Program-made: the position numbers and the translations under genes
Notes under the pieces: model-generated
What the model saw: the letters and a program-made list of their open reading frames with translations, nothing else
Database searches by the model: none
Told to the model about the DNA's origin: nothing
Source of the DNA: Eledone cirrhosa
Lineage: Eukaryota
Direction of reading: 5' to 3'
Length of the DNA stretch: 64,000 nt
Assembly: GCA_964016885.1 (NCBI GenBank)
Contig: OZ024740.1
Location: forward strand, 87,668,001-87,732,000
Shown here: one piece after another, positions 868-59,445 of the stretch
Layout of the letters: the number at the start of each line of letters is the position of its first letter
How positions within the stretch are numbered: the stretch's first letter is position 1

Positions 868-1500
868 TTATTCAGGAGAACTTCTGTCCGAGTTGTTATC
901 CAGAGCGTTAATTACTTGAATGAGTTTGATGTCACAGTTGTAATACTTCATCATTTTCCACAAACCCTCATGCCAAACATGATCAAAGGTGATTTTTTAA
1001 AGTCGAAGTAATGATAGGAGGCAGAGTCCACGATCATTTGTTTCTACAATCCCAAATCATCCCACTGTCATATGCATTTGGTCATATGCATCTGGGACTA
1101 CTTTGACATTCCAGTCTCCTAAGATGATGAAGATGTAATTTTTCTCCAGATCCTCATAAAACTCATCAACATCATCATAATTGAGTGTTGATGCATAGAC
1201 TTGTATGATGGTAATATTCTGTGATCTTGCAGCCCCATGCATGGTGATGAGTCTGCTGGATACTGATGACTGAGCTCACTCTGGTTTCATTAATGATGAA
1301 ATCCACTATGTTCGTGCTTGGTGTCATCACCACTGTATCACAGTTTGTGGCCCCACCAAATCAAGGCCATCTGACTTCAGCCAGCCCTAAAATATCCAAT
1401 GTGCATCTGGCAAGTTCGTGTAATTTCTTTCATCCTTCCACAAACATAGAGAATGCTGATGTTCCATGTCCCAAGACAGTATGTTCTTTATAAAGGATGA
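868..1500 (-). mobile_element. Degenerate RTE (BovB-like) LINE fragment: APE endonuclease part joined to a short RT remnant
   Basis: ORF 1057..1242(-) has NITIIQVYASTLNYDDVDEFYEDL..IILGDWNVKV, the classic RTE APE motifs; the minus strand at ~870-1010 reads like an RT-domain piece (IKLIQVINALDNN..VLLNN). Multiple stops and deletions. Confidence 0.8.
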
Positions 1501-2939
1501 TTCTTGATGTAGGTGTCATTGCCATTGTTGTCATCAGGGTGTTCAGGTAAAAAAAACACTTTGATGTCCGGTAGTGACATCCTTAGGGATGGATGGGTAC
1601 ATTGATTATTCTCACTATTGGCTCTGAAAACGTTTCAGCCACACCCTGGAAACTGCTTCTGCTGGCAGGTTAAACTTAATGAAGGACTTGATGCTTAGAG
1701 AGGAGACAGGCACCACCAAGCATTCTAAGGCACACAGAATTACCATGATAGACAAACATATAATATACCAGATCAGTCGAGATACAGAAAACCAATGACC
1801 GCGCTCTCAACTGCTATTGGAGGTGATGAATGTGCAACTGGGACAATGACAACAACCACACAGACCTACTTGCATCTATAATTATAGAACTATTCAGCAA
1901 ACAATTTCTCTAAATAGGTTTGCTGCTAAATTATGAGCAAAGTCTAATGAAAGTTCGCTGACCATCCTCTATTTTGAGTTGTGTTTTGTAAGAAATCATG
2001 ATTTTCTTTTTTTATGAACATTTTTATAAGATATAGAATGAGTTATACCTCTGATTGATTAAATACAACAAAGAAAAAAAACAATACAAAATAGTAAATA
2101 AATCAAAAGCAAACAAACTGCTTAGATATTTCTGTCTTTGTAAAAGCAGAATGGTAAGGAAATATTGGGTGACAGAAAAATATAGATGCAAGTAGATGTA
2201 TAAAACTATACAACAAAAAAAAACTACACATTTGATCTTGGATTTTGTATCTTGTTACATTTTACTATATTATTCAACAGTAGAAAGTAAAATTCATCTC
2301 AATTCAAAATAGCTGAACATTGTTTTCACATATTTCAAATACTTTTTGTCTTTTAAATTTTTTCTGTTGACTATTTTAAAAGTAAGTTTAATTCAAGCAT
2401 AAATTTTGGATATTTGTGATGCTCAATTCCAATGTTTATTTGCTTCTAATATTAGGAATAATTTTTTAAAAAAGATAAAAAGCTTGTAATAGTCCTAAAT
2501 TTATTAGGTCTTTGCTCTAGTGTCTGGCTAGCTATACAATTTATCATCTGGTTATGAAAAAAATAAATGAAAAAAATTTGTAATCCTTTTAACTCCAGAC
2601 CAACAGTAATTATATTTTATATTTCTGTCTCCATTAGTTATGCAGCTTCTATTAAATTATATTTTGTTAGATACCATGAATGTTTATAGGACATGTTTGT
2701 ATTAGAATATTTATCCAATCATCATCAAGGCACAATCTCTCATTTGTAAGTTTTCTAAGCAATGGCAGCAACACTGCTTACATGTAGCTTTATCCCAAGA
2801 GAACAGACAAAAGCATTTAGCAAGACCAGTTCTTTCTAAAACTATTTTCCAAAATAGATTCTTTTTCCTCTCTGTCTTTATTTCTCTCTCTCACTCTCTC
2901 CTTTCAGTTGCAAGAAATATTTTCAATAGGTAACACTGA

Positions 2940-3620
2940 AGACCTTACAAACAAAATTCCAGTGATGCTTCTAAAGAGAAAATGAAAAGAGAGGAAAAAG
3001 AAAATTTCAATTGATACTATCTAACCATCTCCATTGCTTGCAACTGTGTTTTGATTGATGAGACCTCTGATTCTCTCTTTGTGCCAGCCCAAATATGGTA
3101 TCCAAGCTACAGAATGAACTCTGTGAATCTTTATGATTGGCGTTCTTATCCACTCAGACAATGAGTTAGTTATTGTGAATTTTATTTATCATATATAGTA
3201 TGCGTTGTACCTGAGGATGATAGAATGTTCAGATGATCTTTCTGTCTGCCTTTCTCTAGTCAAAACATTGCAGCGGAAACAAGGAAAGATGAGTATTCTC
3301 GGAAATGGTGTGAAGTAGCAATGATAAGTCATCTCTGATATGTTGGATTTTGACAAGAATACTCAATTAACTGAATAATATGATCTGAGGGTGATCATAA
3401 AATTATACAAATCTAACACAGAATAACAGAGTAGAATGGCACTCTCCCAAGTTCTCTTCACATTTATATAATGTCTGAATCGAAAGCAGCATTCTGTTTT
3501 TTCTAGAATTTCTGTTATATGAATGACTGGCCAGTTTTAATAGTTCCAAGAAATTGTTCTAGCTAACAACTTAGAAGAACATCGCCAACAATTAAAAAAA
3601 TGCTTTTTCACTAACCATAA
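2940..3620 (+). mobile_element. Possible ancient hAT-type transposase remnant
   Basis: Broken peptide pieces resembling the DES/TD catalytic motif (attgatgagacctctgat = IDETSD) and a LN.LN..L.G-like stretch near 3350-3400; heavily decayed. Confidence 0.3.
3203..3275 (+). mobile_element. Decayed Penelope-type hammerhead ribozyme relic
   Basis: CGTTGTA-c-CTGAGGA-TGATAGA...TCTAGTC-AAAAC-at-TGCAGCG: CUGANGA box, stem II, GAAAC box with a CpG-type G>A change, and stem I CGTTGTA/TGCAGCG. Confidence 0.45.
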
Positions 3621-4534
3621 TCATCAACTATCTAAATCTGACTTGTTTGCTTTGATAATTTAATAAATAGAAATATTTGATTAAAAAAAATAACAGCATT
3701 CTATTTTTTAGTTTGAAAGAAGAAAAAAAAAAGTATGTCAACATATAAATAGAAATAAATTTTATTCTAAACAGTAGCCAATGAAAATGTTCAAAGATAT
3801 GAATATTTATTGATGTCATTCGATTAGAGTTAAAATAAAGACAGAAAAAAAAATTCTAATGAAAAACCTGTAATTTTATATTTTAGGGTGGGGTCATTAT
3901 CTGAGAATAAAGATCATTGCTTTTAACTTTCAAATCCATAGTGGACAAAAAGAAACAAGGAGAAGTAATATTAAAAGTGCACTGTTGAATTCTTAGCATA
4001 TCAAAGGGACACACAAGAGAGAAGGATGGTGCCATAATGAAGAAGAACTGCAAGTAAAGCATCACAGTTGGGTATTAAAGAAAAGAGTTGTGTGTAAGAA
4101 GCAGATAAAAAGATGAAGTACACACATGTTGAAAGAGTGGTAGTGGGCAGGCAACTAGAAATATGAGATCAGAGTCCAATACAAAATTGGTTACGAAAAA
4201 GTAAAGAAAATGAGAGACATCACGAGCATTGATTTTGGATTGAAGATTTATATTAAGAAATGGTGATTGCTGGTTACAGGGTTGCCAGATCAATTTCATA
4301 GTTTTCAAAAAGTAATAAATTCTGTTAGAAAATAGCTGAATAAAGATGCCCTTCCTATCTTCAAGCACTTTACAAAGTGTACGGGAGGTGTTTATAATTC
4401 ATATATATATGTAGAGAGAGAGAGCAAGAGAGGGGAATAATCCATTATTTTGGTAAGGAACATCAAGCTTGATGCATTATTAAAGTCGGAATTTGAATAA
4501 CAAGCTTGGTTTTTCTTTTGCATTTACATATATA

Positions 4535-4830
4535 TCATCATCGCTTAACATTCATCTTCCACGCTAGCATGGGCTAGAATGTTTTGTTCCATTTGATGCG
4601 GGAATGGTCGGGAGACTGTCTCGCTCATACGGAAGTGTCTCTGGCAGGAATTTTACAGCTGGATGCCCTTCCTAACACCAACCACATTTACAGTGTGGAC
4701 TGGGAGCCTTTTTACCATGTCTCCTACACGGTCACCTTACAGTGTGGACTGTTGTGTCATTAACACAGTGGACGGAACAGGAAAGGGAGGATGGGGGGTA
4801 TATTGGGTTAAGAGGTGCCTACTGACTAGA
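4535..4830 (-). mobile_element. RTE 3' UTR / RTE-tailed SINE fragment
   Basis: Reverse complement of 8160-8535 (catcatc..ttaac..ttccacgctagcatggg; gctggatgcccttcctaacaccaaccac; aggtgcctactgac). Confidence 0.8.
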
Positions 4831-4892
4831 TTTGTATGCAATGGTAGTTGGGTCTGCTGTACAACTACATGATGCCATCTCGATCCAGTGTC

Positions 4893-4926
<34 letters not shown>

Positions 4927-4990: not shown

Positions 4991-5387
4991 TATATATATA
5001 TGAAATATAGTTGTTATTCAGTAATTTAGTGGTTTACTGGGGGTAGTACAAATATTAGAACTCAATGCTAAAGCAGAGTATAAATATTAAGAATAACATG
5101 ACGAGATTCACATGAATGATTTTATTGCTTAAAATCAGCTACAAACGTTTCACAGATGATTGGCTCAAGGTCCATATGTTATAAACTGACTCCAGCATTA
5201 ATTTGCTGATCAGACTTGTTAATCAAACAAAAACCAAAGTTTTATCCAAGGTTGTTTTTAATCTATAAAACATTCATATAGAACTTTGTCAGTTATTTTA
5301 TATATATATATACACAATATTTTATACATATTATACACAATGCTTCAAGTAAACTATAACATTTTATTATTATTATTATTTCGAAAG

Positions 5388-7106
5388 TATGGTGGGATGG
5401 GGGAAGTAGAGAACACTATCAAGTTGCCAGGAGGGAAGCTAGGAGACAAGTGTACTTTGCAAGAAGGAAAGCAGAGGAAAGAAAGTTCAAGCATGTTCTA
5501 CAACGCGAGGTGTTCAGGATTGCTAGGCCAGTGTGTCAAGGAAAACTGTGATATTGTCGGGGAGAAGTGTGTACTTAATGATGATGGTGTACTTGCCATC
5601 ACTGATGCTGATAAGAAGGTAGCTGGGAAGTGTCACTACGAGAGGCTACTAAATGAGGAGAATAAATGGGACAAAGATAGTCTGCCCCACATCGATCCAA
5701 TAGAGGGACCAGCAGTGCAAGTTGAAGGTAGTACAATAAGTAAGGTAATCAAAGATATGAAGACAGGCAAGGCAGCTGGGCCTTCGGTGATAGTTGCTGA
5801 AATGCGGAAAGCATCTGGAACAGTGGGACACACCATGGTCACCCGAATAGTGAACCAAGTCATACAGAATGGGGTCATACCAAATGACTGGCATAGCAGC
5901 ATCATCATTAACTGCGACAAGGGTAAAGGAGATGCGCTAGATAGAGGAAACTATAGGGGCATTAAATTAATTGACTAGGTCCTGAAGGTCACAGAAAAAG
6001 TTATAGCGCAACTAATCAGAGAGATAATTGAGCTAGACGAAATGCAGTTTGGGTTTGTGTCAGGTAAAAGTACCACAGACGCCCTTTTCCTTGTACGACA
6101 ACTACAGGAGAAGTACCTAGCTAAAAGTAAACCACTATACTTAGCTTTTGTTGACTTGGAGAAAGCATTTGACAGAGTCCCCCGCGCCATTATCTAGTGG
6201 GCCCTTAGAAAACTAGGGGTTGATGAATGGCTTGAGAGAGCTATACAAGCCATGTATAAAGAAACAGTCAGCAAGGTTAGAATTAACAATGAATATAGTG
6301 AAGAATTTAGCGTAAAAGTTGGTGTTCATCAGAGCTCTGTCCTTAGCCCCCTCCAGGCTATAACAGGAGTTCAAGACCTGCTGCCCATGGGAACTTCTCT
6401 ATGCAGATGATCTAACGCTCATTGCTGAATCAATGGATGAACTAGAGAAGAAATTCCAAACATGGAAGCATGGCCTAGAATCAAAAGGCCTTAAAGTTAA
6501 CTTGTCTAAGACTAAAGTTCTAGTATGTAGGAAGGAAAATAGGGCACAGGTCCCTTCTGGGAAAGGGCCATGCTCAGTGTGTAGGAAAGGAGTAGGCAGA
6601 AATTCCATTTTATGTCCCAAATGCCAAGTATGGGTGCATAAAAGACGTAGTGGGATCACAGGTAAGCTATCTAAGAACGTAGATTTTATATGTGGCCGGT
6701 GCTCAGGTGCAATAAGTAGCAAGCGCCCACAAGATACTAGCTCCTTCTATTGCCCAGATAGCTCTATAGAAATAGTGGACACCTTCCGTTACCTGGGTGA
6801 CAAAATCAGCAGTGGTGGAGGGTGCTCAGAAACTACAGTAGCCAGAGTCAGAACAGGATGGAAAAAGTTCAGAGAGCTTATACCACTATTGGCCGCTAAA
6901 GGTTTCTCTCTAAAAATGAAAGGCAGACTGTATGATGCCTGCATACGAACAGCTATGTTACATGGGCATTGTGTGCAGAGGATCTGCGCAGACTGGAGAG
7001 GAACGAAGCATGCATGCTCCGCTGGATGTGTAATAGTAATATATGTGAACAGCAAAGCATAAAGTGAGAAATTAGGTATAAGAGGGATCAGATGCTGTTT
7101 ACTGGA
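5388..7106 (+). mobile_element. RTE-clade LINE copy A (5'- and 3'-truncated RT pseudogene)
   Basis: Motifs MKTGKAAGPS..AEM, IPNDW..SIII..KGKGDALDRGNYRGIKL, QFGFV.GKSTTDA.F, AFVDLEKAFDRVP, GVHQ.SVLSP, LLYADDL, GLKVNLSKTK, FRYLG; in-frame stops (5976, 6195) and frameshifts. Confidence 0.95.
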
Positions 7107-7210: not shown

Positions 7211-7260
7211 TATACATATGTATATATGACCATACATTTGCATATATGTACACACACACA

Positions 7261-8535
7261 CATAGCCTAGAATCAAAAGGCCTTAAAGTTAACTTGTCTA
7301 AGACTAAAGTTCTTGTTTGTAGGAAGGAAAATAGGGTACCGGACCCATCTGGGAAATGGCCATGCTCAGTGTGTAGGAAAGGAGTAGGTAGAAACTCCAT
7401 TTTATGTCCCAAGTGCAAAGTATGGGTACATAAAAGATGTAGTGGGATCACAGGTAAGCTAACTAAGAATATAGATTTTATATGCGGCCGGTGCTCTGGT
7501 GCAATAAGTAGCAGCAAGTGCCCACAGAATACTAACTCATTCCATTGCACAGATGGTTCTATAGAAATAGTGGACAGCTTCCGTTACCTGGGTGACAAAA
7601 TCAGCAGTGGGAGAGGGTGCTCTGAAAGTACAGTAGCTAGAGTCAGAACGGGATGGAAAAAGTTCAGAGAGCTTATACCACTATTGGCCGCTAAAGGGTT
7701 CTCTCTAAAAATGAAAGGCAGGCTGTATGATGCCTGCATACGAACAGCAATGTTACATGGCAGCGAGACCTGGGCGTTGTGTGCAGAGGATATACGCAGA
7801 CTGGAGAGAAACGAAGCTTGCTTGCTCCGCTGGATGTGTAATAGTAATATACGTGAACGGCAAAGCATAAACGAACTAAGGGAGTAATTAGGAATAAGAG
7901 GGATCAGATGTTGTTTACTCGAGAGAAGACTATGTTGGTACGGTCACGTGATACGCATGAAAGACGACAGCTGTATAAAAAAGTGCAGGGCAATAAAAAT
8001 AGACGGTAGCCACGGAGTAGGCAGACCCAGAAAAACCTGGGACAACTTGATAAATTCCGACCTCACACACTTAAACTTCTCCAAGACAATGTCACTGGAC
8101 CGAGATCTTTGGCGCTACACAGTAATCGAGAAGACCCGCCTTACCTAAGTGCAAAGTGAAACCTACTACAATCAGTAGGCACCTCTAACAAAATAGACCC
8201 CCGTCCCACTACCCCCACCCCATCCACACCACTCCTTTCAATGTAAAGTTATGTTGGTACCACAACATCCAGCCTGAAACAAATGAGGTCGTGTAGGTGT
8301 CACAACATAAAAACACACAGTCCACGCTGTAATGTGGCCGTGTAGGTAACACGGTAAAAACCTCCCACTTCCACGCTGTAAATGTGGTTGGTGTTAGGAA
8401 GGGCATCCAGCCGTAGAAAACCCGCCAGACAGTCCTATGCGAGCAAGACAACCACTCTTGCCTCAAGTGGGAAAACTCCCGTCCAAACCCATGCGAGCGT
8501 GGAACATGGACGTTAAACGAAGATGATGATGATGA
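7261..8535 (+). mobile_element. RTE-clade LINE copy B (5'-truncated, complete 3' end with (GAT)n tail)
   Basis: Re-starts at the position of copy A 6469 (offset 792); encodes GLKVNLSKTK..PHD..FRYLG..KGRLY..GSETW..RL.WYGHV.RM..GRPRKTW; ORF stop at 8148, then 3' UTR and ggacgttaaacgaagatgatgatgatga tail. Confidence 0.95.
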
Positions 8536-10928
8536 CACACACACATATTATATGTATATAGTTATGAGCCACATTTAAGACCTATTACAGAATAACTGTT
8601 ATAAGATAATAGTACAAGAGTATTTCAATTCCACAACCAAATCCATACACATAAATACATCAATTGGCTATGCTAAAAATACATTCAATCAACACAGTAA
8701 AATAGGTATACTACTTTGGACCTTGCCCAATCCATAAAAGCATGAAAAAGAAAAAAGAATTATGTATGGTGTCTGAGTGTATATTTATGCTTATTTGTCC
8801 CATTCAGGCTAGTATGGAAAACGGATGAGGAACAATAATGATGATATTGATGTATGCATTGTAGTGAATTATTTCATCTAGGTTTTAGTGTAGTACTTCA
8901 TATCATCATCATCATCATTTAACGTCCACTTTCCCTGCTAGAAATCAGTATTGAAGAAGGGTTACTGAACTCCCAGACGTGTTGGTAGTGGGGTGGGTGG
9001 ATTCAGGTCTGCATTCCACTTATGTACAATGATACATTCTATTGAGAGTGAAGAAGAGGTTGTCATGTCTTGGCACAAACTGAAGGGTTCTTCCAACCCT
9101 TTGTTTGGCAAACTTTCTATGGCTAGATGCTTTTCCTAACACCAACCAATTTACATCATGTACTGGATGGATTTCTCATGTAGATCCCCAACACTAGAAC
9201 AGCTATTGTGTTTCACGCAAGTGAAGGGTCCTCTCAACCCTAGTCCCCTCTAGAGTGAGAGAATAAGTAAGTGAAATCTTCAGCTAACAGAAAATTTTTC
9301 ACAACTCTGTAAATTTGCATGACTTTCTACAGTATAGCTCAGGTGGTTCAGAAACTTTTTAAGATTAGTTTTTAGACTGTTTATAACAAAGATTCTATCA
9401 TTCTTCAAGTGGAAAGAAGTAAAATAGTAAATATTTTCAGACGGACTAATTCTTTTTATACTGCTTAGTCAAAAAGCCAAGGGCAGCAACTATAACTGCA
9501 TTTTATTCAGGGCCTCTGAGACTGGTGTGAGGAAGGAAGGAATTTATCTTCAAGTCAGAAACACAGCTCAAATGCCTACAAAAGAATGGATACTACTAAA
9601 GGCCAGGTGAAAAGGTAGCTAGCTGAAGGGACAAGAGAGTTAAACTACTGACTCATGATTCGGGGGTTAAAAAAATGGTTGTATTTTGAGGCAAGACCCC
9701 CCACACACACACCGAAAATAAGATACAGGGCACTGATCTAAGAAAGTTACTAAATGAAAGACTTTGGAGGTGGTATTATATTGGATTCTCAGGTCATATA
9801 ATTTCAAATTTTGTAACAAATTCATGGTTAAGTTTGCTTCAGAACCTCTCAGGATTTCACATTTGATCCTACTATGTGGTACCTTGGCTAAGTGTCTTCA
9901 ACTATAGACTAAATCCAGCAAAGATCTTGTGAGTGAAAATGGATAGAAACACTGTAAAAGCCTGCTGGATGGACTGTTCTTGTTCTTGGTTAGTACTCTT
10001 AATCTGTCATCTAGTTTACCACCACTAGCTAGATCATGGGTGAGTTTGGGGCAATCCACTCCATCACAAGTTTTTGTGAAAGTTCCTCAAACTGATGATA
10101 ATTTCTTTCCTTCTCACTAGTCTAAGGCCCTGAAAAATCATGGAGTGCTACCTATCCTTCCATAATTAAGTCATTAAAAAATTAAGCTCTACTTTTCCCC
10201 TGTTTTAAACAAAATACATTACTGATAACTGTAATTGATTCTTGTGGGTGGGGAGATGAAATATGAAACAAAAAACAACAAAAACAATAGAAAAAGATCT
10301 GGGGGTGAGTTTGAACTCAGATTATCAAAGGATGTGACTGAATTAAGTGAAGTCTTAGTGCTATTGCTTCTGTTAAACCTATCAACTCCCCCAAAATTAC
10401 TATTACATATATTACAATGATAGCAACATTAACAACAAAAAGAAGAAATTCAGTAAGAAAAATAAAAGTTGAACATTGAAAATAAAGTAGACAGCAATTA
10501 TATGAAGTACAATTTATTAAGTTTTAAGCATATTTAATCTGCTGTCAGTTTACAGATAGCAATTGTCAAGTCCAAGTCAAGAATATATCATTTATGCAAA
10601 GCGGTCAGTTGAATGCAGATTTTCAATTTCAACTCAATATCAATCACTTCAACCACATTTTTATTTCCCCAGCATCAGCCAACATACACCAACAAAATTG
10701 TCAGTTAACATCAAGGAGACATAATTATTCTCATTTAATTTATAAAAATCACTCATCCTTACAAAGAATTTTAAAAGATAAGCATGCAGCTATTCAGGAT
10801 TGTTAACATAAAGCATTAATCTTAATTAAGATAAAGAGGCAACATTACCAGTATTACCTCCTACCTATACTGATGTACTGCATTCTTATAGCTCCCACTC
10901 TCCCACTATATTGCTAGCATTTTCTATT

Positions 10929-27756: not shown

Positions 27757-28122
27757 CATCATTTTACATCCGCTTGCAAGGATTAGATGGGTCCTATTCA
27801 GCATCTCTCCACTTCTCACGATCCTTCGTCATCTCCTCGATGAGTTTCAGAGATCTGAGGTCTGCTCTCACCACCTCCATCCATGTTTTACGTGGTCTAC
27901 CTCTACTGCATCTTCCTTCTACTGGGATTTCTTGGCACTTCTTTACCTAGTGGTCATCCTCCATGTGCATCACATGTCCATACCATCTCAGCCTTCTCTC
28001 CTGCACACCACAACTTATCCCTCTTATACCCAGTTTCTTTCTCAACTCGTCTATGCTTGGTCGTTCATGCACATTGACATTGCACATCCAACAGAGCATA
28101 CGTGCTTCATTTCTCTCAACCC
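27757..28122 (-). mobile_element. RTE LINE 3' fragment (different subfamily from 7261-8535)
   Basis: ORF 27947..28291(-): [55 protein letters not shown], continuing to GRPRKTW; both ends bounded by microsatellite. Confidence 0.9.
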
Positions 28123-28176
28123 GTATGCATGTGTGTGTGTGTGTGTATATATACACATAGATATACATATGTATAC

Positions 28177-31856: not shown

Positions 31857-32572
31857 ATCATCATCAACGTTTAACGTCCGTGTTCCACGCTTGCATGGGT
31901 TTGGACGGGGGTAGTCCCACTTGAGGCAAGAGTGATTGTCTTGCTCGCATAGGACTGTCTGGCAGGTTTTCTACAGTTGGATGCCCTTCCTAACACCAAC
32001 CACATTTACAGTGTGGGTCTGGGAGGTTTTTACCGTGTTGCCTACACGGCCACATTACAGCGTGGACTGTGTGTTTTTTTGTCGTGACACCTACACAATC
32101 TCATTTGTTTCGGCCTCGATGGCGCGGCACCAACATAACTTTACATAGAACGGGGTGGTGTGGATGGGGTGGGGGGTGGTGGTGGTGGGACGGGGTGTAT
32201 TTTGTTAGAGATGCCTACTGGCTGGAGTAGGTTTTACTATATATTTAGGTAAGGCGGGTCTTCTCTGTTACTGAGTACCGCCAAAGGTCTCGGTCCAGTG
32301 ACATTGTCTTGGAGAGGTGTAAGTGTGTGATGTCGGAGTTTATCAGCTCGTCCCAGGTTTTTCTAGGTCTGCCTATTCCGTGACTACCGTCTATCTTTAT
32401 TGCCCTGCACTTTGTTATACAGCTATCGACTTTCATGCGCATCACGTGTCCATACCAACGTAGCCTTCTCTCGAGTAAACAACATCTGATCCCTCTTATC
32501 TCTAATTTTTTCCTTAGTTCGTTTATGCTTTGCCGTTCACGTATATTACTGTTACACATCCAGCGGAGCATG
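31857..32572 (-). mobile_element. RTE LINE 3' end, same family as 7261-8535
   Basis: ORF 32245..32652(-): [67 protein letters not shown], followed by the full 3' UTR and (CAT)n tail. Confidence 0.95.
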
Positions 32573-33236
32573 CAATATATATATATATATATATAAACAC
32601 CCTTGCTAGCAGGGAAAAGCGGACGTAAAATGATGATGATGATGACAAACATACAGATATATACATAGAAGTTTACACATATGTAGGGACCCGTAGGGAT
32701 GCCGTAGTGCTATATTGCGTTTCTAGGGCGTTTTAAGCCTGTCAGAGCCCATCCTTCTCCAGGTCTGAACTCAGCACATCTCTCCCAGAGAAGGAAAGAA
32801 ATGATTACTAAAATATGAGGTGTGAAATTTCCACCAAATGCCCATTTACAAATAACTCCTAGCTAATTTAAATTCAATAGAATCTAATTAGATGCCTAAC
32901 ACACATTTTTTGTGTGTGTATAAGCCTGTTACCTGACATTCTCTTCTAAGATTTGACCATACACAACATGCACCAACAGAATTCATCAACCCGTGGTCAC
33001 TGAAAAAGAACCCTTAAAGCAGGAAATACCTTCACTTGAATCATATTCTCATGAACAATGATATACTTAGCATGAAACTTAAAAGCAATGGAAAAGTAGA
33101 TATTTTATCTATTCATAAGAAATTTATTCACTCTATACAACAGAGCTGTATCATTTTTGTCTGTGAAACCACTTATAATCTATTATGTGTGTTGATACAT
33201 ATATGTTTTGGTGTGTGTATGCACAGACACACACAC

Positions 33237-35520: not shown

Positions 35521-35748
35521 AATCTACAGAGACAAAGACAGACTCAGACAGACAGGCAGATAATCAGACAGACAGGTAGCCATAGCTAGTCAGACATTTA
35601 GACAGGAACATAGAGTCAGATGGACAGGCACAAACAAACACAGGTAGACACAGGCAGGCACAGACAGAGAGACAGGCTGACAGACACAGGGTGGCACAGA
35701 CAGACAGAAAGACATGCAGACAGACAGACAGACAAACTGACAGACAGT
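35521..35748 (+). repeat. Degenerate (CAGA)n simple repeat
   Basis: Runs of cagacagacagg/cacagacaga. Confidence 0.85.
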
Positions 35749-35865
35749 TTGGTAGCATTTCCTGTCAAAAGATGGTATTGAAAAATAAAACAAGTGACAC
35801 AACTTGACATGCTGGTGGGACATGTGTAGCTCATGGCACAGCAGTTTTGTGTATATAATGGTACA

Positions 35866-36100
35866 TTGGTGGGTGTGTATAACACAGGAAACTGGCAGGG
35901 GTGAGTATAACACGGGAAACTGGTGGGTGAGTATAACACAGGAATCTGGTGGGTGAGTATAACACAGGAATCTGGTGGGGGGGGGGGGGGGGTATAACAC
36001 AGGAAAATTGTGGGGTGTGTATATCAGCACACCAGTGTGTGTATAATGGTAGATTGGTTGGTGTGTATAACATGGGACACACATGGATGTGTATAACAGA
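35866..36100 (+). repeat. 26 bp minisatellite
   Basis: About five good copies of ctggtgggtgagtataacacaggaa(a/t) plus decayed copies; one unit carries a poly-G expansion. Confidence 0.9.
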
Positions 36101-36214
36101 GGAGAGGGGGTGATGTGAAGGAAAGAAGCTGGATATTGAGAGGGTAATGAGGGAGGGAAAGACAGGATGAGAGAAGTGAAGAAGTTGGCATGAATCATGA
36201 TATATGTGATAATG

Positions 36215-37553
36215 ATAATTGTTTCTACTTTAGGCACAAGGCCAGCAATTACCCAGTACATTACTGGTAGTTTATTTTATCAACCCCCGTAAGGATGAAA
36301 GGCAAAGTTAACTTCGGCAGGATTTGAACTCAGAATGGCAAGGGCCGTAACTCCATGCATCAAAGCATGGCGTCCGACCCTTTACCGATACTGCCAATCA
36401 CCAAATATAATATTGCAAGATCAGTGATAATGATGATAATAATTTCATTATTTATTGTGATAATGACAATCATGATAATTTCTTTATTATTTATTTATCT
36501 ACTTATAACGATGATAATAATGATACCATATATACTATTGTGATAATGATGATGATACCAAATATAATTTTATAATAATAGGGATAAAGAAAAATAATTG
36601 TTTCTACTTTAGGCACAAGGCCAGCAATCACCAGTTCATTACTGGTACTTTATTTTATCGACCCCGTAAGGATGAAAGGCAAAGTCAACCTCGGTGGTTT
36701 CTGATTTAGACACTTGGCCAACAATTGTGAGGGAAAGGAAAGTTGATTAAATCAGCTCCAGTGCATTACTGGTACTTTATCTTAACCCTGTAAGAATGAA
36801 AGGCAAAGCTAACCTCAGCAGGATTTGAACTCAGAATGTAAAGGACCTTAACTATATACTGTGAAGCACGTTCGACACTCTACTGAAACTGCCAAGCCAC
36901 TGCCCTGTATGATAATAATGATGTCTAATTTAAGTACAAGGCCAGCAAATTTGGGGTTGGGCAAAGTTAATTATATCAACCTCAATACTTAACTGGTACT
37001 TTATTTTATTGTCTCCAAAATGATGAAAAGCATGTAAATCTCAATGGTATTCGATCTCAGAATTTAGAAAGATACGATCACTCAATACTGCCATTCTACT
37101 ACCCTCTGTGATAATTATACCTAAAATCTAAAATTATTTCTATTTTTGGCACAAGGCCAGCAATTATCTCAGTGCATTACTGGTACTTTATTTTATTGAC
37201 CCCATAAGGATGAAAGACAAAGTTAACCTCAGCAGGATATGAACTCAGAAAATCTAAAATGATATTGCAATAATAACAATGATAATGATATTAAATATAA
37301 TATTGTAATCATATTGTAATCATATTGTAATCATACTGATAATGATACCAGAAATATAAATACTATTAATAATTGTTTCTACTTTAGGCACAAGGCCAGC
37401 AATTATCCAGTGCATTACTGGTACTTTATTTTATCGACCCCGTAAGGATGAAAGGCAAAGTCAACCTCGGCGGGATTTGAACTCAGATCGTAAAGGGACG
37501 TAACTATGCTGGAAAGCATGGCGTCCGACTCTCTACCGATACTGCCAATCCAC
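36215..37553 (-). mobile_element. Head-to-tail array of ~6 Meta-like tRNA SINE copies
   Basis: aattgtttctactttaggcacaaggccagcaatt..actggtactttattttatcgaccccgtaaggatgaaaggcaaagt recurs at ~36216, 36596, 36712, 36925, 37133 and 37371, separated by (ATA/ATG)n. Confidence 0.9.
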
Positions 37554-41800: not shown

Positions 41801-43120
41801 TCCACTGATGTATGGTTCAGTATGAGATGGGCTAAAGACATGTTCCTAAAAAGACAATGATCTCAGCTGGAATGTCTGATCATAAGTATGCCTTATCAGG
41901 GTTTTCATGGAGTTAAACAACAGAATGTTTCAAGCAATTTCTGAAGTGTGTTATAATCACTCCAAAAAGTGTTTTGGTTACTCAACCTATTAGTAATCTG
42001 CCTATGGCTGTTTCTATTTCCTTCATAGAAAATAGCTTATTTTAAAGTGTTTATATTCAAATTCAATCTTTCATCACAACATTTATAGAAAAAAGCAACA
42101 TTTTACTGCTTAGCCAAAGAAGGAAAGGCACCAGTGATGAGGTATGTTATTCAGAGCTTTCAAGACTAGTGAGAGAAATATCTTTTAAAATCCAGAGCTG
42201 AACCAAATGTTAGCAAAAAGGTGAACTCTGCTAAAAGTCCTGAAGAACAAGATGGGGGTAATAAACTGGGCAGCAGATTATGTCTAGCACTCAAGAACTC
42301 AGAATACAAAGAGCTAGAACAAATGCCATAATGCTATAATGATTCTGTCAATCCACAACCCTAGACCAGCATTTTGTCTTTCATTCTTCTGGGGTTGATA
42401 AAATAAAGTTGAGCTCGGTGGGAATTGAATTTAGAGCACAGGCAGCCAAAATAGTATCACAAAACATTTTGTTTTATGCTCTAAAACTGTCAATTGATCT
42501 TTTAGTTGAAACATTAACTGCCTATTTCTTCAGAAATGATTAAGGTATAAATGAAGGTATTTCTACAAAACTATGGTCATTGTTACCATTTTTAAATTTC
42601 CTGTGATATCTACTATAATGCTGTGTGACAACACACTCCTGGGTAGACATAGTCAGTTGTTCAGTTAAACACTTCCTGCAGGCCTAGGTACTGCAAGCAT
42701 ACAAGCTAGATATCTAACTTAAAGATACCTTCCCTTTTCCTCATATCAATCTTGAATAGATGAGAATGTATGGAAACTCATTGAATGGATTGTATCTATA
42801 ATTCAAAGGTCCAGCTTAGATGTCACACTTAGCTTAAACGGACATGTCAGTCACTTGTTAACTTAATGAGTTGGATGATGAGTTAATCAAGTAACAGAAT
42901 GCTTCATCAATGACACCAACAGAGGATTCAGCAGCAACTACAATGTAAGACCAATTCATTGATGTAAACTTTCTGTAGAGAATAGAACACTATTATGAAA
43001 ACAACTCAGGAGGATGTGTTTTTGGTTAAAACTACATAGAATCTTTAGTAGTGACACAGCAAACCATTGGGTTGGTTAGGAGTGGGACAAGAAATTAAAA
43101 TAAAACAACACAAACTATAA

Positions 43121-43680
43121 TTAAAGGAGATACTGACAAGACTGAGCCTGGCCACTTCTGCCATGGCAAAGCTGAATGTCATGGAAAAGCAAGTCCATCA
43201 GTTTTCCAACAAAGCTCAAACTATAACAAGTCCTTGGTGACTTTGATCTGTTTGTATAGGTGTGATTGTTGGACTCACAGAGATGACATGGAACAAAGAA
43301 GCCAGTCATTCAAGCACAAGTGTTTCAGAAGGTTGCTACACATCCCATACATGGAGTACAAAACAAACACCTTTGTCAGGCAGCAAGTCAACAAATATGC
43401 TGGCAGAGAAGAACCACTCCTTGCAATGGTGAAAATACAGAAGCTTGTCTAGTATGATTATGTATCCCACCACAACTCCCTGTCTAAAAACTATCTTTCA
43501 TGGCACAGTCGAGGGAGGGCAGACAAAGAAAATCCTGGTTCGTCAACATCAAAGACTGGACTGATCACATCGCTGAGACCCCTCTACACTTGATGGAAAA
43601 TAGAGACCTGTGGCCATGGCTGATTGCGAAAGCATCCAAAGTAGCACCCCAACATCAGGTTGCACCAGTTGTGGGAACGG
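43121..43680 (+). mobile_element. RTE-BovB-like LINE 3' fragment
   Basis: KSISFPTKLKL..SLV..ICLYRCDCWT....QSFKHKCFRRLLHIPYME.KTN.FVRQQV...EPLLAMVK..KL and GRQRKSW.VNIKDWT. Confidence 0.9.
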
Positions 43681-57334: not shown

Positions 57335-57722
<388 letters not shown>

Positions 57723-57749
57723 GCATACATACATATATGTACATATATA

Positions 57750-58115
57750 TATCATCATCATCATCATTGTTTAACGTCCATCTTCCACGCTTGCATGGGT
57801 TTGGACGGGAGTTTTCCCACTTAAGGGAAGATTGGTTGTCTTGCTCGTGACTGTCTGGCGGGTTTTCTACGGCTGGATGCCCTTCCTAACACCAACCACG
57901 TTTACAGTGTGGGCTGGGAGGTTTTTACCGTGTTACCCACACGGCCACATTACATCGTGGACTGTGTTTTTTTTTTTTTCGTGACACCTACACGACCTCA
58001 TTTATTTCGGGCTGGATGTTGTGGTACCAACATAACATTACATCTAAAGGGGTGGGACGGGGGTGTATTTTTGTTAGAGGTGCCTACTGACTGTAGGTTT
58101 CGCTTTGTACTTAGG

Positions 58116-58116
<1 letters not shown>
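57750..58116 (-). mobile_element. RTE LINE 3' UTR copy
   Basis: Reverse complement of 8143-8535, with (TA)n at the truncation point. Confidence 0.9.
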
Positions 58117-58187
<71 letters not shown>

Positions 58188-58677
58188 ATGTATATATACA
58201 TAGCCTTAATATTGAAACTCAACTTCGGTATTGAGGACCCTTCTACCCCAACTGTCAACCACATACCGATATATATTTATATACATATAAAGTTCCTGGT
58301 GTGCGTACACACACATACAAATAATAACAAAACCAGTGAATATTAACAAATTGAATACTTAATGCTTATAAGTAAAGTACAGAGAAAAAGTGTAATACAT
58401 ACAAGTGCAAAGAAATAAAATGGTGTTTATGTAATATGTAAGTGTAGGTATGAATGTCTACATGTATTTATGAACATATGTATGATTATATATGTATGTA
58501 TAGGTATGTATTTATGAACATATGTATGACTATATATATATATATATATTTGTATATATGTATGTATAGGTATGTATGTATTATGTCATATAGTCCAGGA
58601 ATATTGTAGTGTCTATTCAGACCAGATTGATTTATGTCAAAGAATTTATATTTCTATCTTTGACAAAATGTAGTGTA

Positions 58678-59222
<545 letters not shown>

Positions 59223-59264
59223 ATTACGTCCGCTCTTCCCTGCAAGTATATATATATATATAAA

Positions 59265-59445
59265 ACGAAGGAGGTGTGGTAAGGAACCAGATGGACCATA
59301 ACGCACCAGAGTACTCAATACTTAGGTCGAAACGGCTTGAGATCTGCCGTTGGGGTTAAACTTTTTCCTATTACCCACTCTACTACGCTAAATATTGAGT
59401 ACTCTGGTGCGTTATGGTCCATCTGGTTCCTTACCACACCTTCGT
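59265..59445. mobile_element. Inverted pair of Penelope pLTR-like fragments
   Basis: Perfect 49 bp arms 59272-59320 / 59393-59441; spacer contains tCGAAACg (3' half of a hammerhead core); (TA)n on both sides. Confidence 0.75.

Follow-up and report, generated by a model that had tools for sequence, protein, structure and literature searches.

The window, by which we mean the whole stretch of 64,000 nucleotides that was analysed (Eledone cirrhosa, contig OZ024740.1, positions 87,668,001 to 87,732,000), contains two copies, A and B, of an RTE-type LINE whose reverse transcriptase (RT) is interrupted by a PHD finger. Both copies are broken. Their features are listed below in window coordinates, with the basis of each call in brackets.

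5380..7106, + strand: copy A, an older copy truncated at both ends (about 89% identity to long genomic copies)
6571..6702, + strand: PHD finger of copy A; Arg in place of Cys at the sixth ligand, 6646-6648 (ligand pattern, Pfam)
7252..7263, no strand: left 12-base target-site duplication of copy B, within an (AC)n tract (12-base match)
7264..8534, + strand: copy B, a 5'-truncated RTE-type LINE of subfamily 1a (sequence reading)
7279..7314, + strand: RT motif 6 of copy B, GLKVNLSKTKVL (aligns with L1 ORF2p GYKINVQKS)
7363..7494, + strand: PHD finger (C4HC3) of copy B, eight ligands intact (ligand pattern, Pfam, predicted fold)
7561..7593, + strand: RT motif 7 of copy B, IEIVDSFRYLG (frame +2 translation)
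8535..8546, no strand: right 12-base target-site duplication of copy B (12-base match)

The frame of copy B extends from motif 6 to its natural stop at 8146-8148 and is interrupted at 7885-7887 by a premature stop; the copy lacks YADD, and its 3' UTR terminates in a (GAT)n tail. Copy A has YADD at 6400-6411, contains stops and a frameshift near 6364-6374, and lacks the 3' end. The inserts of the two copies differ at 10 of 132 bases.

Other repeats occupy parts of the same window. Further 3' fragments of this LINE family, none of which extends as far as the finger, lie at 31857-32575 (-) and 57726-58118 (-), and a 3' fragment at 27779-28123 (-) is nearer to the second finger-bearing family described below (protein identity 72% to its copy at L125 and 58% to family 1). 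Short elements at 8927 (-), 62283 (-) and 4534-4757 (-) join the LINE 3' tail motif or 3' UTR to different upstream DNA and are likely SINE-type passengers of the finger-bearing LINE. A fragment of an old, different LINE family, the genomic copies of which are mostly 43-77% identical and decayed, is found at 43099-43452 (+), and long simple or degenerate tandem repeats at 35590-36276 and 57465-59301 give rise to spurious open frames. Long repetitive open frames likewise result from long tandem arrays that make up the whole of locus L146 and positions ~1400-4900 of locus L143; these arrays either expanded from a short coding segment of the old LINE represented at 43099-43452 or were placed within such a segment.

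Identity and predicted fold of the insert

In frame +2, positions 7363-7494 encode the pattern C-x2-C-x10-C-x2-C-x4-H-x2-C-x14-C-x2-C, with Trp two residues before the His and Phe two residues before the last CxxC. The initial annotation had read this spacing as a C4HC3 PHD finger and had placed the same insert, with one Cys>Arg, in copy A. Both statements are confirmed: the insert of copy B reaches 33.4 bits on the Pfam PHD profile PF00628 (E 4.7e-8; curated cut-off 24) and that of copy A, at 6571-6702, reaches 26.0 bits. In the profile comparison that the annotation had recommended for the 44 residues, PHD thus scores above its cut-off and ahead of the RING, C1 and ribbon families. Readings of the insert as a RING, C1 or zinc-ribbon domain were rejected on score, with C1_2 at 24.5 bits and the C1 and RING families below their own cut-offs.

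A structure prediction had also been recommended, and we modelled a natural sequence. AlphaFold2 gave the natural 791-residue frame a mean pLDDT of 88.3, with 83-93 in the blocks of the finger. The best match of the full model is L1 ORF2p (Z 28.1, rmsd 4.2 over 605); the model ends at the equivalent of L1 ORF2p residue 1060, and the C-terminal domain of L1 is therefore absent from the finger LINE. Modelled alone, the finger has a mean pLDDT of 77. Its top Foldseek rows are PHDs with a TM of ~0.65 and an E above 0.001 throughout. In VIA, too, PHDs account for the best Z values (5.6, 5.3 and 5.2), and the fold matches include those of TAF3, Pygopus and PHF23. A best Z of 5.6 and no Foldseek row at E 0.001 are usual for a domain so small. 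The insert is predicted to be a PHD fold set on an otherwise L1-like RT core.

The finger-bearing lineage and selection on the finger

The finger LINE has features of the RTE clade, in which a short tandem-repeat 3' tail is typical: APE endonuclease and RT are encoded in one ORF of ~1000-1100 residues, and tails are (GAT)n. A search over 3.0 Gb of the genome returned 61,397 first-look candidates, and the 150 of these that were scored are 95-100% identical. The same genome contains a second finger-bearing family, with open frames of 1024 and 1045 residues from the endonuclease to the C-terminus; it has the 3' tail motif of family 1, though synonymous divergence between the two is saturated. Full endonuclease-RT-PHD frames of this second family lie at L124 1626-4760 (+) and L125 1395-4466 (-). 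Pfam finds Exo_endo_phos, RVT_1 and PHD together in proteins P0004, P0050 and P0095.

Among public proteins matching the window fragment, the motif is present in all 120 of the matches listed (the best 120 of 225), and in 112 of these 120 the first Cys lies 57 residues past YADD. A second search used RT motifs 0-6 only, which removes the bias of a finger-holding query. Its best 120 of 978 matches comprise 106 with the full motif, 13 with a variant or broken form, and one from which the whole loop is absent; a finger or its remnant is therefore found in 119 of the 120 listed relatives (of 978) picked by RT alone, and the earlier view that the insert is a property of the family holds. The expectation that ordinary RTEs have only a short linker at this place is borne out as well, with YADD and [YF]LG typically separated by 65-70 residues in finger-less relatives versus 127-136 in finger-bearing ones.

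In RT trees built with the insert left out and distant RTs as outgroups, the finger-bearing rows group on one branch together with a single dead row that lacks the finger (SH-aLRT 85, 64 rows). A more careful tree of 51 rows, obtained by removing 13 long-branch or near-duplicate rows, gives the finger branch 92/85, not starred. The trees are consistent with one gain of the finger and one loss, given that the outgroups are distant; the loss is that of P0275, a dead relative nested in the finger clade. The finger-less tree neighbours and relatives, which are of fish, plant and insect type, we take to be RTE types (Expander/Rex3-like and plant RTE-like), the trees containing no named reference. 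The named hosts are Octopus bimaculoides, Hydractinia symbiolongicarpus and Mercenaria mercenaria, and the host range thus rests on three named species plus P0149, a protein from a symbiont assembly that is probably contamination by the host; the matches in octopus, hydroid and clam agree with the earlier belief that similar inserts occur in other invertebrates. The PHD finger marks one whole lineage of RTE-type LINEs.

Two observations concern single members. P0175, P0181, P0209, P0210, P0222 and P0234 have additional residues after the His and ahead of the following Cys, a spacing that is therefore open to variation. P0002, a gene model of Octopus bimaculoides, has an RT-PHD fragment fused to a LETM1-like domain and is probably a gene-model artefact.

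All eight ligands are invariant in a 121-row alignment, as the initial annotation would have them, and the finger is kept among relatives of 40-67% identity. In rows found with a finger-holding query, the first half of the finger is conserved like RT motifs 3-5 (0.76 each), and the flanking linkers are variable, with a mean top-residue share of 0.40 before the finger and 0.27 after it. The recommended dN/dS comparison revealed purifying selection. Over 49 codons, pN/pS of the finger between subfamilies 1a and 1b and family 2 (8, 7 and 8 natural copies) is 0.14 (95% 0.04-0.39), 0.23 and 0.26, the two values against family 2 overstating dN/dS because synonymous sites are saturated; all upper bounds lie below 0.45, with Fisher P from 1e-3 to 1e-12. 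Between 1a and 1b, dN/dS is ~0.11 for the finger and 0.13 for the RT core. Eight intact ligands are also present in 129 of 131 copies, a count that, like dN/dS within the family, is biased since similarity in this region was the basis on which the copies were selected.

Insertion sites and the proposed role of the finger

We compared the insertion sites of family 1 (76 loci) and family 2 (40 loci) with those of a young PHD-less LINE of the same genome (49 loci), presumably of CR1 type. This control and the distant-RT outgroups were used because finger-less RTEs of the same genome occur only as old or tandemly repeated fragments. The control family (L157-L206) has many intact 945-residue frames, ~99% identical, and an (ATT)n tail.

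Junctions were scored for an alternating purine-pyrimidine sequence in the 12 adjoining bases, loci without a clear junction being left uncounted. In family 1 such 12-mers, mostly TA, adjoin 26 of 53 5' junctions (26 of 56 in a first pass) and 25 of 62 3' junctions; the counts for family 2 are 10 of 26 and 17 of 32, and those for the control 4 of 33 and 2 of 46 (Fisher P versus control: 0.0005 and 1e-5 for family 1, 0.03 and 9e-7 for family 2). The background frequency is 6%, and about half of the finger-family junctions lie outside such tracts. The TA-type microsatellite bias of the finger families is real and family-specific. Because the family is very abundant and young, its target bias shapes this genome. 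The bias is not assignable to the finger, as the control also differs in endonuclease and tail, and the microsatellites at the junctions may have expanded after insertion; for both reasons it is no evidence for the finger as such. An automated search for target-site duplications found matches of 7 or more bases at 14 of 46 loci, most of them uninformative because they lie inside microsatellites.

CpG o/e, an indirect proxy for chromatin, was computed for the flanks and is 0.45 in family 1 (76 loci), 0.50 in family 2 (the 38 of 40 loci with enough flank), 0.40 in the control (49 loci) and 0.69 in the background (100 pieces from 20 stretches). The finger families show no difference from the control in this measure (P 0.20 and 0.15). 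CpG-poor flanks were therefore rejected as a sign of finger-guided targeting: the PHD-less control has them too, and there is no chromatin signal in them that is specific to the finger. CpG-rich DNA is generally read as promoter-like. Only 4% and 13% of loci in the two finger families exceed a flank CpG o/e of 0.9, against 24% of background pieces, and we see no pull towards CpG-rich, promoter-like DNA. Of the non-random insertion that the initial annotation had anticipated, the part that stands is a bias at the level of DNA sequence; a finger-specific CpG signal did not emerge. The bias fits effects of DNA or of tail pairing at least as well as steering by chromatin.

The position of the finger in the RT suggests a function. 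Papers are cited here by PMC accession, for the parts of their text that were available. On the family profile, the R2Bm chain aligns through residue 669, which corresponds to profile position 746 at the end of motif 6, and the first Cys of the finger falls at ~760, some 14 positions past the end of that alignment. The R2 6a loop comprises residues 672-677 between motifs 6 and 7 and reads target DNA; its deletion blocks nicking, and the authors predicted it to be unique to R2 (PMC10499050), a loop of this kind being present in vertebrate R2 too (PMC11601368). By this alignment, extrapolated a few residues beyond the aligned stretch, the finger occupies the loop that matches R2 6a. For the terms tried, the available text of the L1 study of target-primed reverse transcription (PMC7617806) has nothing on the loop between motifs 6 and 7. 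The finger itself is basic, with a mean net charge of +6.5 (range +1 to +12) in the 212 of 236 stored proteins that have the motif and with a conserved patch, HK[RK]C.

We tentatively propose, at slightly less than an even chance, that the finger acts in target-primed reverse transcription by gripping the target DNA alongside the nick. Its loop would face the target DNA like the 6a loop of R2, conserved Lys and Arg residues would contact that DNA (naked, linker or nucleosomal), and these contacts would help to keep it in place during nicking by the endonuclease and the onset of RT activity. The microsatellite bias may arise in part from the finger, or solely from the endonuclease together with (GAT)n-tail pairing. 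As finger-less sister RTEs exist, the finger is dispensable for RTEs in general, and as the R2 endonuclease is of another type, the path of DNA in the finger LINE may differ from that in R2.

The initial annotation had put forward a chromatin-reading module that steers insertion, and the corresponding reading, that the finger binds a methylated histone tail through a Pygopus-like H3K4me pocket and so tethers the element to marked chromatin, draws on the best sequence and fold matches, which are the H3K4me readers Pygopus, TAF3, PHF23 and BPTF. The Pygopus PHD reads H3K4me2 with a pocket of Y341, V350, A356, I357 and W366 together with D352 and E360, has a negative histone face, and loses binding when E360 is mutated (PMC2726290, available text). 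We mapped this pocket by sequence alignment onto the 224 of 384 proteins that have the first six ligands at this spacing. The equivalent of Y341 is aromatic in 194 of these (209 counting His), that of V350 is Val in 209, that of A356 is Ser or Ala in 219, that of I357 is Ile, Val or Leu in 222, and that of W366 is Trp in 221. These hydrophobic residues are conserved as strongly as residues of the RT core, and plain DNA gripping does not obviously need them. The equivalents of D352 and E360, however, are acidic in only 4 of 224 proteins each, the Pygopus stretch aligned to the finger is acidic where the finger carries its positive charge towards a basic ligand, and the flank CpG resembles that of the PHD-less control. 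What survives of chromatin steering is thus the five hydrophobic positions, and we consider such tethering somewhat unlikely, although a general targeting role has been proposed for the Pygopus-like PHDs of CR1/L2 ORF1, for which no functional study existed according to the portion of PMC4120745 at hand. It is similarly doubtful that the RT palm contains a true methyl-lysine reader which, its basic surface set against nucleosomal DNA, docks the enzyme on nucleosomes that bear the mark; DNA grip and methyl-lysine reading could work jointly on a nucleosome.

The basic surface and conserved aromatic residues would equally suit binding of the element's own RNA or of an RNA:DNA hybrid, in aid of template recognition or RNP assembly, and the element has neither a C-terminal zinc knuckle nor, in the model, the L1 C-terminal domain, while a 3' tail motif is common to both families and to the short elements of the window. 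This role is unlikely, given that finger-less RTE relatives do without a finger and that the equivalent R2 loop contacts DNA, not RNA (PMC10499050, as available). If the finger instead served as an adaptor to some host protein other than a histone, or packed against the RT in a structural capacity, it would have a parallel in the second face of the Pygopus PHD, which binds BCL9 (PMC2726290, in part), and in the non-H3 peptides (VRK1, TET3, ASXL2) contained in several matched PHD structures; the finger is also modelled with more confidence in the full protein than alone, the underlying alignments being different. No partner is known, and the variable linkers on either side of the finger suggest a tethered, mobile domain, so that this role is decidedly unlikely. 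It is hardly credible that the insert is carried along neutrally or results from faulty annotation, as the loss in P0275 might hint: the pN/pS values far below 1 refute this in large part, and the eight ligands are invariant in the alignment. The PHD finger in the RT core is real, and the DNA grip is a proposed mechanism.

Significance and comparison with known systems

In APE-type LINEs, the endonuclease is usually regarded as the sole determinant of target choice. The presence of a folded domain under selection in what corresponds to the target-recognition loop of R2 suggests that targeting has a second input in this lineage, which is widespread among animals. The loop between motifs 6 and 7 can accommodate an entire domain, and this bears on the understanding and engineering of retrotransposon RTs. 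If the finger were a true reader, a LINE polymerase equipped to read chromatin, found from cnidarians to molluscs, would drive a repeat family that is among the largest in this genome. The targeting idea voiced for LINE PHDs (PMC4120745, in the text available) is directly testable in this single-protein element. The literature searched, a scope outside which most subscription papers fall, yielded no account of an RTE RT with an internal PHD (Repbase may note one), and the available portions of PMC3849965, PMC3520747 and PMC7617806 contain nothing on such an insert.

Like other RTE-clade LINEs, the finger LINE has one long ORF with APE endonuclease and RT, a short tandem-repeat tail, 5' truncation and a target-site duplication; unlike ordinary members of that clade, it has ~62 extra residues with a PHD finger between RT motifs 6 and 7. 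The octopus element RTE-2_OV has a terminal C2H2 finger, and no PHD is described for it in the accessible text of PMC9115989. With R2 6a (R2Bm, 8GH6) the finger shares the character of a lineage-specific insertion with basic residues between RT motifs 6 and 7. R2 6a is a short loop that reads a fixed rDNA motif in an RLE-type element (PMC10499050 and PMC11601368, each in part), whereas the finger is a whole domain, predicted to hold two zincs, and belongs to an APE-type element whose insertions are dispersed; contact of the finger with DNA is putative. The PHDs of CR1/L2 resemble it in being LINE-borne and in having Pygopus (2vpb, 3zpv) as best matches; they sit in ORF1 or at an ORF N-terminus, whereas the present finger interrupts the RT core of another clade (PMC4120745, available part).

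The Pygopus PHD itself is similar in fold (Z 5.6, rmsd 2.7 over 52 residues) and in the five hydrophobic pocket residues, and differs in that D352 and E360 are absent from the finger, which is basic where Pygopus is acidic and for which no HD1-type partner is known. A chromatin-reader fold on a DNA-rearranging enzyme is familiar from the chromodomain integrases of LTR elements. The PHD of RAG2 is another such case, with mark binding reported (PMC3520747, in the portion available). The finger LINE joins a comparable fold to a different enzyme, and mark binding by its finger is putative.
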